From positions 5,441 to 69,440 of the forward strand of contig JAXDPD010000003.1 in assembly GCA_034668505.1 (NCBI GenBank): DNA of 64,000 nt, given 5' to 3'. A model generated the notes under the pieces. The model was given only the letters and a program-made list of their open reading frames with translations. It made no database searches and was not told where the DNA came from. The DNA is from Sphingomonadales bacterium. Lineage in GTDB: Bacteria > Pseudomonadota > Alphaproteobacteria > Sphingomonadales > Sphingomonadaceae. Made by a program: the position numbers and the translations under genes. Shown piece after piece: positions 2,805-7,140 of the stretch (its first letter is position 1; the number at the start of each line of letters is the position of its first letter).

Positions 2805-2808
<4 letters not shown>
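634..2808 (+). CDS. gspD: Type II secretion system secretin
   Basis: Signal peptide; N-domains (LNLRDADIRAFI, IIDPAVQGRV); secretin core (QVLVEAIIVE, NILSTPSIMTLDNQEA, VPVLGDIPVIGNLFRS). Confidence 0.95.
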
Positions 2809-4380
<1,572 letters not shown>

Positions 4381-4388
<8 letters not shown>

Positions 4389-5604
4389 TTTCGCTTATGT
4401 CGGCCTCGACACGGCCGGACGCGAGCGGCGCGGCTCGGTGCGCGCCGAGACCAGCGAGGCGGCGCGCGACCAGCTCAGCCAGCGCAAGCTCTATGTCGTC
4501 AGGATCGAGCCCGCCGGCGAGGATGCCGGGCGGCCCTTGCTCTCGCGCGGTCTGTGGGCGCGGCGCAAGATGGGGATCAAGCAGGTCACCCTCTTCACCC
4601 GCCAGCTCGCCACCCTGATCACGGTCTCGCCGCTCGAAGAGGCGCTGCGCACCATCTCGCGCCAGGCCGAGCGCGAGGAGGTCCGGCGCATCCTCACCCA
4701 CGTCCATGCCGGCATCGTCGAGGGCCTGCGCCTCTCCGATTCGATGGCGCGCGAGGCGGCGAGCTTCCCGCCGCTCTACCGGGCGATGGTCGCCGCCGGC
4801 GAGGCCTCGGGGACGCTGCCGCAAATCCTGGAGCGGCTCGCCAACCTCATGGAGCGGCAGGCGCAGGTCAGGAGCAAGGTGCTCTCGACGCTCGCTTATC
4901 CGATCATCCTCGCCTTCGTCGCCGCTTTCGTCGTCTTCGCCTTGATGATCTTCGTCGTCCCCAAGGTGGTCGAGCAATTCCAGGATGTCGGCCAGTCCTT
5001 GCCGCTGCTGACCCGGATGGTGATCGGCCTCTCCAATTTCCTCGCCGCCTGGTGGTGGGCGATCCTGCTCGCCGTCGCGGCCATCATCTTCCTCAGCCTG
5101 CGCGCGCTCAAGGACGAGGGCGTCCGGATGAAGTTCGACCGCTTCCTGCTGCGCCTGCCTCTGGTCGGCCGGCTGATCCGCGATCTCCACGCGGCGCGGA
5201 TGGCGCGCACGCTCTCGACCATGGTGGCGAGCCGGCTGCCCTTGCTCGAGGGGCTGAAGCTCACCGCCAGCACCGTCCACAACCGCGTGCTGCGCGCGGC
5301 CATGGCCGACATCGCCGAGCAGGTCCGCACCGGCGGCAGCCTGTCCGGAGCGATGCGGCGGGCGGGGATCTTCCCGCCTCTGCTCGTCTATCTCGCCGCC
5401 TCGGGCGAGGCCTCGGGCAAATTGGACGTGATGCTGGAGCGCGCCGCCGACTATCTCGAGCGCGAGTTCGACGCCTTCACCACGACCGCCTTGTCGCTGC
5501 TCGAGCCGGCGATCATCATAATCATGGGCGCGGTGGTGGCGCTGATCGTGCTTTCGATCCTGCTCCCGATCCTGCAACTCGACACATTGGCTGGAGGATA
5601 TTGA
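4381..5604 (+). CDS. gspF: Type II secretion inner-membrane platform protein
   Basis: FTRQLATL, GEASGTL/GEASGKL duplicated domains, LLEPAIII; three hydrophobic segments. Confidence 0.95.
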
Positions 5605-6107
5605 TGGCCGCTTCCTTAAATCCTCCCTGGAACGGGGAGGGGGACCGCACGAAATGCGGTGGAGGGGGTTCAGAGACCCGCGCCGAGCCCCCTCCACCAC
5701 GCGCTGCGCGCGCGGTCCCCCTCCCCGTCCCGGGGAGGATCCAAGGCTTCACCCTTGTGGAATTGATGGTGGTGATCGTCATCCTCGGGCTGCTGGCGAC
5801 GATCGTGCTGATCAACGTCATGCCGGCCACCGGCCGCGCCAAGCTCACCGCCGCCCATAGCAGCGTCAAGCAGCTCGAGCAGGCGATCGACATGTACAAT
5901 CTCGACAATGGCCGCCTGCCGACCCGCCAGGAAGGGCTGCAGGCTCTGGTCGCGAGCCGGATCCTGCGGCGGCTCGACCCCGATCCCTGGGGCAATGCCT
6001 TCGTCTACAGGATTCCGGGCCGGAACGGGCGCCCCTATGACGTGCTCTCCATGGGCGCCGACGGCCGCGAGGGCGGCACCGAGGACAATGCAGACATCTA
6101 TCCCTGA
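5604..6107 (+). CDS. gspG: Major pseudopilin with an extended (48-aa) prepilin leader
   Basis: G|FTLVELMVVIVILGLL cleavage motif at 5748; DPWGN...SMGADGREGG. ATG 5604 overlaps the gspF TGA and follows GGAGGA. No other in-frame ATG/GTG/TTG occurs before the cleavage site. Confidence 0.9.
   Translation: MAASLNPPWNGEGDRTKCGGGGSETRAEPPPPRAARAVPLPVPGRIQGFTLVELMVVIVILGLLATIVLINVMPATGRAKLTAAHSSVKQLEQAIDMYNLDNGRLPTRQEGLQALVASRILRRLDPDPWGNAFVYRIPGRNGRPYDVLSMGADGREGGTEDNADIYP
5620..5740. repeat. REP-like palindromic element, family C (long form), inside the gspG leader
   Basis: Arms 5620-5648 and 5712-5740 are reverse complements at 27/29 positions; inner arms GGTGGAGGGG/CCCCTCCACC. Confidence 0.9.
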
Positions 6108-7140
6108 TCCCGGAGCGGCCATCCTGCTTGCCTTCGCCGGCGAGGGGGCGGCGCCCGGGCGCTGGCTGCTCATCGAGGGCGGCCGGGTCACCGCGCGCGG
6201 CGAGGAAGGCGACGAGGTGCTGCTCGCGCCGGGCACGCGCACGGCGCTGGCCGTGCCCGGCGCCGAGGTCGCGATCCACTGGCTCGACCTGGCCGAGGGC
6301 CTCGCGCCGGCCCAGGCCGCCGCGGCGGCGCGGCTGATGCTCGCCGACGCCAGCGCCGGCAGCCTCGCCGACATGCACGTCGCCGTCGGCCTGCCAGAGC
6401 GCGACCTGACGCCGGTGGCGCTGGCGCCCGCCGCGCTGATGGCGGCCTGGACCGCGCGCGACCCGGACATCGTCATCCCGACCTCGCTGCTGCTGCTGCC
6501 GCCCGAGGAAGGGCTGGCCCGGCGCGACGCAGGCCGCACCACCCCCGATTATCGCGGGCCCGCCGCCGCGTTCAGCGTCGAGCCCGAGATCGCGCAGCTG
6601 CTGGTCGGCGAGGCGCCGACCGCGGCGATCGACGAGGAGGCGTTCGAGGCGGGGCTTGCCGCCGCTCTCTCGCCGCCCGCCGTCAACCTGCGCCAGGGCG
6701 CCTTCGCCCGCCGCCGGCAGTGGCGGGTCGACGGCTCGCGGCTGCGCCGCGTCGCCTGGCTGGCGCTCGCGCTCGCCGCTTTGTCGCTGATCGTCCAGCT
6801 CGCCCAGATCCTCGCTTATTCCTCCTCCGCAAGCCGGATCGCGGACGAGGCGGCGGCGCTGGCGGCGCGGGCGCCGGCCGGGGCCAATGCGCGGCTCGGC
6901 TTCACGCCGCTCGCCGCGACCCTGTTCGAGGCGATCCGGGCCGTGCCCAATGTCGAATTGAGCCGGCTCGAATACCGGCCCGACGGGATCCTGTCGGCGA
7001 TCGTCACCGTCGACAGCCCGGCGACGCTGGCAGTGCTGCGCCAGCGGATCGCGGCGAGCGGCCTGATCGTCCAGGACGGCGCGCCGCAGCCCGCCGGCGG
7101 CGCCCGCTCGACCGCCGAATTGCTGCTGAGGCCGGCATGA
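6088..7140 (+). CDS. gspL: Type II secretion system protein L
   Basis: Position in cluster; cytoplasmic actin-like region (DMHVAVG, VNLRQGAFA) followed by one TM helix. Start taken at ATG 6088 overlapping the gspG end. Confidence 0.8.
   Translation: MQTSIPDPGAAILLAFAGEGAAPGRWLLIEGGRVTARGEEGDEVLLAPGTRTALAVPGAEVAIHWLDLAEGLAPAQAAAAARLMLADASAGSLADMHVAVGLPERDLTPVALAPAALMAAWTARDPDIVIPTSLLLLPPEEGLARRDAGRTTPDYRGPAAAFSVEPEIAQLLVGEAPTAAIDEEAFEAGLAAALSPPAVNLRQGAFARRRQWRVDGSRLRRVAWLALALAALSLIVQLAQILAYSSSASRIADEAAALAARAPAGANARLGFTPLAATLFEAIRAVPNVELSRLEYRPDGILSAIVTVDSPATLAVLRQRIAASGLIVQDGAPQPAGGARSTAELLLRPA

Follow-up and report, generated by a model that had tools for sequence, protein, structure and literature searches.

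A palindromic repeat lies in frame within gspG, the gene for the major pseudopilin of a type II secretion system (T2SS), in a stretch of 64,000 nucleotides from a Sphingomonadales bacterium (Sphingomonadaceae; GenBank assembly GCA_034668505.1, contig JAXDPD010000003.1, positions 5,441 to 69,440 of the forward strand). This whole stretch is referred to as the window; it corresponds to C3:5441-69440 of an assembly of 3.78 Mb in 91 contigs, and coordinates given without a contig are positions in it. The repeat, a member of a multicopy family that we designate family A, occupies most of a 48-codon leader between the start codon, which is coupled to the upstream gene gspF, and the site at which prepilin peptidase would cut. 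Judging by the frames and stop codons of related leaders, the element is almost certainly translated from the coupled ATG and then removed by the peptidase. We consider it highly probable that the account holds as a whole, i.e., that a family A element inserted in the gspG leader, that it is read through, that the leader is cut off, and that mature GspG is left intact.

The palindrome and the start of gspG

The element extends over 133 bp (5614-5746) if the weak outer pairs CCTT/AAGG are included. Its terminal inverted repeats are ATCCTCCCTGGAACGGGGAGGGGGACCGC on the left (5620-5648, with a small hairpin of its own, CCTCCC..GGGGAGG, inside) and GCGGTCCCCCTCCCCGTCCCGGGGAGGAT on the right (5712-5740, with GGAGGA at 5734-5739 and no start codon after it). 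When ATCCTCCCTGGAACGGGGAGGGGGACCGC is set against the reverse complement, ATCCTCCCCGGGACGGGGAGGGGGACCGC, 27 of the 29 positions match, which confirms the 121-bp palindrome with 29-bp arms that the first-pass annotation of this stretch had reported. Further inward are a small variable hairpin, CCGCA-CGAAA-TGCGG (5645-5659), and an inner hairpin made of GGTGGAGGGGG, a variable loop and CCCCCTCCACC (5658-5698), the cores of which are conserved when family copies are aligned. A repeat finder delimited the outer arms at 5614-5651 and 5709-5746 (38 nt, 87% complementary) and the inner arms at 5658-5671 and 5685-5698 (14 nt, 93% complementary). Folding of the RNA, proposed as a check when the palindrome was first noticed, gave -110.6 kcal/mol for the palindrome region (z = -7.3), and 0 of 200 shuffled sequences were as stable. 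Given the family copies in the same genome, in all of which the left arm is conserved, the palindrome is far beyond chance. It should be noted that the ends of the element, ATCCTCCC.. and ..GGGAGGAT, carry no unpaired GTAG or CGTC tag of the kind that marks repetitive extragenic palindromic sequences (REPs) and REPINs (REP doublets forming hairpins), and that an Rfam search of positions 5000-6500 returned only sub-threshold chance matches to microRNA hairpin models.

The upstream gene, gspF, encodes the T2SS platform protein (4381-5604, forward strand, from the list of open reading frames; Pfam T2SSF, E = 1e-60). Its stop codon TGA (5602-5604) overlaps the ATG of gspG at 5604 as TGATG, and the Shine-Dalgarno sequence GGAGGA of gspG (5593-5598, forward strand) lies within the 3' end of gspF, 5 nt before this ATG. 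The gspG frame is open from ATG 5604 to 6107 on the forward strand, and its translation is a precursor of 167 amino acids (aa) with the domains of a major pseudopilin, i.e., Pfam N_methyl (residues 46-69, E = 1e-7) and T2SSG (residues 71-165, E = 9e-27). The leader, MAASLN..PGRIQG, comprises 48 codons (5604-5747, forward strand), of which 44 are encoded or touched by the repeat. It ends at the prepilin peptidase site Gly48|Phe49 (GGC TTC, 5745-5750, forward strand), recognized from the translation and the N_methyl motif; the protein continues with TLVELMVV.. (G48|FTLVELMVVIVILGLL). The class III motif G|F-T-L-x-E is thereby present together with the hydrophobic helix, and the G|F motif lines up with those of 100 orthologues. 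The position that had been claimed for the palindrome, between the gspF-coupled start and the G|F site of a 48-aa leader, was therefore correct. The only other start-like codons in frame are TTG 5601, ATC 5739 and GTG 5757, the last of which is beyond the cleavage site. Initiation at a non-canonical codon downstream of the element, the other possibility that had been raised, finds no usable codon, ATC 5739 abutting GGAGG without a spacer. Judging from the codons available, a protein that includes the G|F site has to begin at ATG 5604 or at TTG 5601 next to it.

Frames and stop codons in the leaders of the genus

Of 156 species of the genus, 100 yielded a GspG; we compared the DNA upstream of each G|F codon and retained the 87 species in which the end of gspF and the G|F site are on one stretch; the genome of the window is G000 in these comparisons. 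The interval from the gspF stop codon to the Gly codon varies from 26 to 245 nt. Nevertheless, an in-frame ATG is found within -1 to +8 of the gspF stop codon in 86 of the 87 species: as an in-frame TGATG or ATGA overlap in 76, and 3-8 nt past the stop codon in 10. The arrangement GGAGG..TGATG or ATGA at the gspF/gspG junction is conserved across the genus. Leaders range from 10 to 83 aa, and those of 23 species are short, basic and free of elements (10-27 aa, e.g., MKKRHHSEEG|F); the leaders of element-free relatives begin at the same gspF-coupled ATG.

The remaining leaders carry inserts of several kinds. At this one site we found family A in 29 species, REP dimers of the CGTC type in 23, other palindromes in 12, and no insert in 23 (n = 87). 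The CGTC-type inserts, which we refer to as family B, begin with CGTCATCCCGGCGAAAGCCGGGA, and nested insertions are present in the gspG leaders of G114 and G130. The 63 species with leaders longer than 27 aa contain 27 distinct insert lengths and 46 sequence clusters at ≥80% identity, and all lengths are multiples of three. There are no in-frame stop codons in the 2,905 codons of these leaders; the other two forward frames contain 34 and 69 stops, and the reverse frames 28-46 each. Because the inserts of the 63 species have lengths divisible by three and lack stops, we infer that they are translated from the coupled ATG. The short leaders at the same ATG in relatives, the frame kept in 86 of 87 species and the lack of stops bear out the earlier proposal that the insertion is tolerated because the leader is discarded, and the disposable GspG leader would be a favoured harbour for repeats.

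The internal frame of the insert varies. Family A is read by different species as GEGD.., GRGT.. or WGGGPPEGWW.., and the resulting leader peptides include ..NPPRDGEGD..PPPPRAARAVPLPVPGR.., ..PPRHLPGRGTTRRVVEG..PLHHASHGPPP.. and ..LPIAKRWGGGPPEGWWRG... What is conserved is only the total frame of the insert and not its internal reading frame. Repeats have also colonised the leaders of minor pseudopilins, protein linkers and other junctions.

A separate kind of leader expansion was observed as well. A 33-nt unit that encodes GF(T/K)P(L/W)RRSAE(H/N) occurs in 1-4 tandem copies just before the true G|F site of GspG, GspH, GspI and GspJ; the carriers are L035 (G009), L037 (G005), L044 (G022) and L046 (G003), and the gspG leaders of G094, G108, G129 and G132. 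Each copy recreates the G-F-T motif. The unit may represent a small element whose target duplication is GGCTTCAC, or it could result from slippage or conversion between pseudopilin leaders.

Turnover at the site among close relatives

The nearest species, G103 (mature GspG 95% identical), and G081 carry the orthologous insertion, with the same flanks and the same 143-nt interval. The small hairpin CCGCA..TGCGG is fully re-paired in both, as CCAGG..CCTGG in G103 and CCGTG..CACGG in G081. In their small clade, REPs are found in G152 and G089, and family A in G000, G103 and G081. The possibility, noted at the outset, that orthologues simply share the long leader thus applies only to G103 and G081, which inherited the insertion; other close relatives have a different repeat or none. 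Three species with identical flanking protein sequences represent three states: family A (G017), no insert (G087) and a family B REP (G070).

Metagenomic relatives vary in the same manner. One of them (P0003, mature GspG 92% identical) has a leader built of REPs, and another (P0002, 70% identical) has family A in the leader. In a third (P0004, locus L185), the end of gspF is near-identical, mature GspG is 92% identical, and the leader is only 16 aa long and free of the element, which is the short leader that had been predicted for close relatives. The sequence of this leader differs and offers no clean empty site, so that the exact insertion point or a target duplication cannot be defined there. 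It should be noted that the 16-aa leader itself (L185:427-480, ATGCGTATGAAATTCCCCCGCGACGACGAAGCG..) aligns at ~60% with the first 30 nt of the left arm of family A; it is possible that an excised element left a trace that has since decayed, or that the GC-rich DNA matches by chance. A tree based on the columns of the gspF tail and the GspG N-terminus implies 39 state changes and has one strongly supported branch only. Taken together, the states of close relatives point to a site that is gained, lost and replaced on short time scales.

Selection on gspG and RNA structure of the leaders

Comparison of G000 and G103 yielded a dN/dS of 0.18 for mature GspG and of 0.78 for the leader, i.e., purifying selection acts on the mature part only. 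In the comparison with G081, an unaligned indel makes the value of the mature part unreliable, and it was not used. These ratios suggest that gspG is functional and that the leader peptide evolves close to neutrality. The net charge of the leader in the used frame is not distinct from that in the unused frames, giving no support for selection on charge.

The mean minimum free energy of the leader RNA is -110 kcal/mol for family A, -70 for family B REPs, and about -15 for element-free leaders. An RNAalifold consensus of 13 family A leader copies from different species contains 38 pairs, of which 7 have changed on both sides with pairing kept.

Family A copies in the host genome

A search of the own genome with the element returned the self match (100%) and about 17-20 full-length copies with 72-83% identity. 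The arm cores GGGGAGGGGGACC and GGTCCCCCTCCCC form ~19 pairs spaced 73-94 nt apart, none of which encloses a gene, and a further ~13 are solo arms; the genome-wide search for copies suggested in the first-pass annotation thus revealed a sizeable family. According to an alignment of 18 copies, the anatomy is, from 5' to 3', the left arm ATCCTCCCCGGGACGGGGAGGGGGACC, a small variable hairpin, GGTGGAGGGG, a variable loop, CCCCTCCACC, another small variable hairpin, and the right arm GGTCCCCCTCCCCGTCCCGGGGAGGAT. With its terminal inverted repeats (27 of 29 positions matching), family A has the features of a small multicopy non-coding element of the MITE (miniature inverted-repeat transposable element) type. 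Among the matches listed for named genomes is a family A copy in Sphingomonas sp. IC-56.

Most copies are intercistronic. Their 5' end is 1-15 nt after the stop codon of the upstream gene, and their 3' end, GGGGAGGAT, is 4-8 nt before the next start codon. The clearest case is C84:12242-12359, between nuoI and nuoJ; other examples are C8:6288-6414, C3:2553-2675, C88:54497-54620 and C40:7803-7929. The downstream genes, named from sequence, are ExbD/TolR-like, PaaB-like, NuoJ, HpcH-like and SufD-like. At these junctions the GGAGGA of the right arm is the Shine-Dalgarno sequence of the next gene and is predicted to pair with TCCTCC of the 5' arm, and an intercistronic copy could be a built-in device of translational coupling.

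At least three copies are part of protein-coding frames, where they coincide exactly with linkers between Pfam domains. In CoaBC (C88:16571-16687), the element encodes residues 182-221, between Flavoprotein (9-179) and DFP (223-402); in LigD (C88:78077-78204), residues 197-239, between the PE domain (41-148) and the ligase domain (from 260); in RNase R (C23:11828-11953), residues 247-289, between CSD2 (164-233) and RNB (from 290). Half an element was found in the C-terminal tail of a putative ThiC-like protein (C73:52544-52607).

Candidate sources of family A

The ends of the 18 aligned copies show no consistent target-site duplication. No transposase could be tied to family A among the Y1_Tnp and DUF559 loci examined, other transposase families not having been searched. 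The own genome has four Y1 (IS200/RAYT-like) transposase genes (C76:8581-8901, C76:17226-17549, C74:7889-8212 and C4:5046-5366), each flanked by perfect palindromes of its own, e.g., GGGGACACACACGTGTGTGTCCCC and GGGGACAGTTACGTAACTGTCCCC. These palindromes are unrelated to family A, and an association of family A with a RAYT (REP-associated tyrosine transposase) was rejected on this ground; the four loci are candidate REPIN/RAYT systems in their own right.

DUF559 cassettes were likewise rejected as the source of the family A arms, since the own fragment and 30 loci of the genus lack the family A cores. The DUF559 loci of the genus carry a different palindrome, CCCTCTCCC..GGGAGAGGG. The DUF559 (Vsr-like endonuclease) genes themselves are widespread: of 61 genomes of the genus that were searched, 59 have between 1 and 10 copies each. 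A modular palindrome, CCCTCACCC..CCCTCTCCC-loop-GGGAGAGGG..GGGTGAGGG, lies on either side of these genes (own C46:25100-25560; L155-L184 in relatives). The palindrome unit beside the own DUF559 fragment resembles the nested insert in the gspG leader of G114.

Other T2SS genes

The operon context of gspG in the window is that of a T2SS. Upstream of gspF are gspD (634-2808; Pfam Secretin) and gspE (2805-4388; T2SSE), and gspG is followed by one unassigned open reading frame and by gspN (T2SSN). A Peptidase_A24 gene is located at C3:4477-4797, which is ~650-960 nt before the window begins, and contig C18 has another copy. Outside this cluster, three more prepilin-type genes, with GspH-, GspI- and GspJ-like N-termini, are located on the reverse strand of C18 at ~33.7-34.7 kb, and the leader of the GspI-like protein contains a REP (..PFPGESRGP..WAPAFAGER..).

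Discussion

Our preferred explanation is that the element is translated and then discarded. Family A would be a MITE- or REP-like non-coding repeat of ~120-135 bp, with terminal inverted repeats of 27-29 bp and 3-5 internal hairpin modules, which inserts, or survives, mostly in a zone just behind stop codons. The copy in gspG would have landed in this usual zone, 10 nt past the gspF stop codon; because the gspF stop and the gspG start overlap, the zone is inside the gspG leader. Initiation at ATG 5604 would proceed by re-initiation after gspF, or de novo on GGAGGA (-11 to -6), and the strong stem, which starts at +17 from the AUG, would probably not block it. Elongating ribosomes would melt a hairpin of ~100 kcal/mol and produce a prepilin with a 48-residue leader. 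This leader, presumably cytoplasmic, would be cut off behind Gly48 by the prepilin peptidase, whose gene is a short distance upstream of the cluster, so that mature GspG is unchanged and the ~44 repeat-encoded residues never enter the pseudopilus. The insertion would be tolerated because the leader is discarded, the leader being the only dispensable coding stretch of a tightly overlapping operon. The constraints expected on an insert are a length that is a multiple of three and the lack of a stop codon, with the peptide sequence free to drift.

Several observations weigh against this explanation, or against its simplest form. Translation and processing are predicted here from the sequence, and the leader of 48 aa is longer than the 6-26 aa published for such leaders (PMC4471445), so that its cleavage by the peptidase is an extrapolation. 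Inserts are present at the site in 64 of 87 species, far more than a family of ~20 copies per genome would lead one to expect, and neutrality alone may not account for this. The flank tree is too poorly resolved to count independent insertions, and the species are not phylogenetically independent. In one species among the 87, G015 (locus L036), the coupled ATG is out of frame; the junction contains three copies of a REP and is interrupted by an in-frame stop. If translation began at a TTG within the last of these copies, an 11-aa leader, MRRDDGPNEEG|F, would result. A new start may have rescued the gene, the gene may be dead, or the assembly may be in error at this point.

The high occupancy would be accounted for if the hairpin were selected as a regulator, through gspF-gspG coupling, slowed elongation, a site for RNase III or RNase E or a protective site, or the GspF:GspG ratio. 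A stem of about -105 kcal/mol would then be placed 10-16 nt past the AUG, and any palindromic repeat landing there would be retained. This agrees with the strongly structured insert at the junction in 74% of the species, with the replacement of families by one another at the same spot, with stems kept by compensatory change (7 of 38 pairs), and with the intercistronic copies, in which the GGAGGA of the element pairs with its own 5' arm right behind the upstream stop codon, as would suit translational coupling. However, the 23 species without an insert, some of them with identical flanks, have little structure at the junction, so that T2SS function does not depend on a hairpin. In any palindromic repeat, quasi-palindrome correction or conversion from paralogues should bring about compensatory change even when the RNA is not under selection, and the colonised minor pseudopilin leaders, linkers and other junctions fit a harbour for repeats. 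We regard selection for a regulatory hairpin as unlikely, and the data do not call for the tuning of gspG translation or mRNA stability that had first been proposed. A more specific version would have family A be an intercistronic cassette in which TCCTCC of the 5' arm masks GGAGGA of the 3' arm until a ribosome terminating upstream, and only such a ribosome, unmasks it, the hairpins in pseudopilin leaders being kept for stoichiometry or coupling; this, too, we hold to be improbable. If it is true, the prepilin leader is a lineage-wide regulatory segment built from repeats, and not only a dump for selfish DNA.

Two further alternatives concern the protein. The element might be untranslated, either because gspG starts downstream at ATC 5739 or because the gene is inactivated. 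The ATC is in frame and adjoins GGAGG, and the out-of-frame junction of G015, with its possible TTG start inside the repeat, would be a parallel; but a start at the ATC would have no spacer and would leave a leader of three residues, and it cannot explain the absent stops and the lengths divisible by three in 63 species. A dead gene is at odds with the dN/dS of mature GspG and with the intact T2SS genes and peptidase. We consider an untranslated element very unlikely. Alternatively, the long leader peptide might itself have a function: it could affect membrane targeting, topology or when the prepilin is processed, or it could act once released. Even insert-free leaders are unusually long and basic in this order (10-27 aa), and most leaders are net positive. 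However, the peptides differ completely between species, which use different frames and families, the leader dN/dS is 0.78, the used frame is no more positive than the unused ones, and the net charge is zero or negative in 14 leaders; a function of the peptide is hardly credible. Translation followed by removal of the leader remains our explanation.

The closest known parallel is found in the Rickettsia palindromic elements (RPEs), multicopy repeats of ~100-150 bp, a sizeable fraction of which are in frame in functional genes (Ogata et al. 2000, summarised in PMC10969869 and PMC3733652). As in the RPEs, the repeats of family A are palindromic and multicopy and include a sizeable translated fraction at tolerated sites, and the in-frame copies of CoaBC, LigD and RNase R, each flanked by intact domains, uphold, together with that in the GspG leader, the likeness to RPEs that had been noted at first. 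By analogy, family A in this genome already appears to behave like RPEs. Family A differs from RPEs in its GC-rich and apparently unrelated sequence, in its free-living sphingomonad host (RPE hosts are obligate intracellular bacteria), and in having no conserved element peptide, several frames being used. In GspG, moreover, the insert peptide would be removed post-translationally, leaving the mature protein untouched, and the site is recolonised by several families across the genus.

REPs of the GTAG/CGTC type are located mostly between unidirectional open reading frames near stop codons, including the CGTC families of Sphingomonas wittichii and Sphingobium (PMC3733652). Some lie wholly inside open reading frames, often N- or C-terminally, where they were proposed to be harmless (PMC3733652; Di Nocera, De Gregorio and Rocco 2013). 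The family B leader inserts (CGTCATCCCGGCGAAAGCCGGGA..) are of this CGTC type; family A differs as a larger composite palindrome with terminal inverted repeats of 27-29 bp and no CGTC/GTAG tag. Prepilin leaders and pilins are absent from the intragenic REP targets in the supplement of PMC3733652, and a search of the literature on prepilins or pseudopilins with palindromic or REP sequences found no paper that describes repeats in prepilin leaders. MITEs, such as Correia/NEMIS, ERIC, RUP and BOX (PMC10969869), resemble family A in being small, non-coding and intercistronic, with terminal inverted repeats and co-transcription in operons, and the intercistronic family A copies supply the downstream Shine-Dalgarno sequence; for family A, no consistent target-site duplication was seen at the ends of the 18 aligned copies, and no parent insertion sequence or transposase in the Y1 and DUF559 loci examined. 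The leaders of type IVb/Flp prepilins are hydrophilic, end in Gly, are cut at the cytoplasmic face, and have 6-26 aa (Berry and Pelicic 2015, PMC4471445). The GspG leader is likewise hydrophilic, ends in Gly and would be removed by prepilin peptidase, but it has 48 aa here and up to 83 in the genus, and the excess is repeat DNA and not a conserved leader of the lineage. By analogy, these comparisons fit the principle of RPEs and intragenic REPs in a new niche, the prepilin leader.

The genus offers a natural experiment, with 87 species and 46 sequence-distinct inserts, in which a class III leader appears to be stretchable from ~10 to at least 48 residues, and up to 83, with arbitrary sequence. 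If cleavage is confirmed, the peptidase and membrane insertion would be insensitive to the length and content of the leader, a point of interest to pilin engineering and to gene annotation, as gene callers often choose wrong starts at such leaders. Likewise, lengths divisible by three, the lack of stops and free sequence would then be a signature of translated selfish DNA. The RPE phenomenon would be extended to free-living, GC-rich Alphaproteobacteria, and the findings point to sites close to stop codons as the niche of these repeats.

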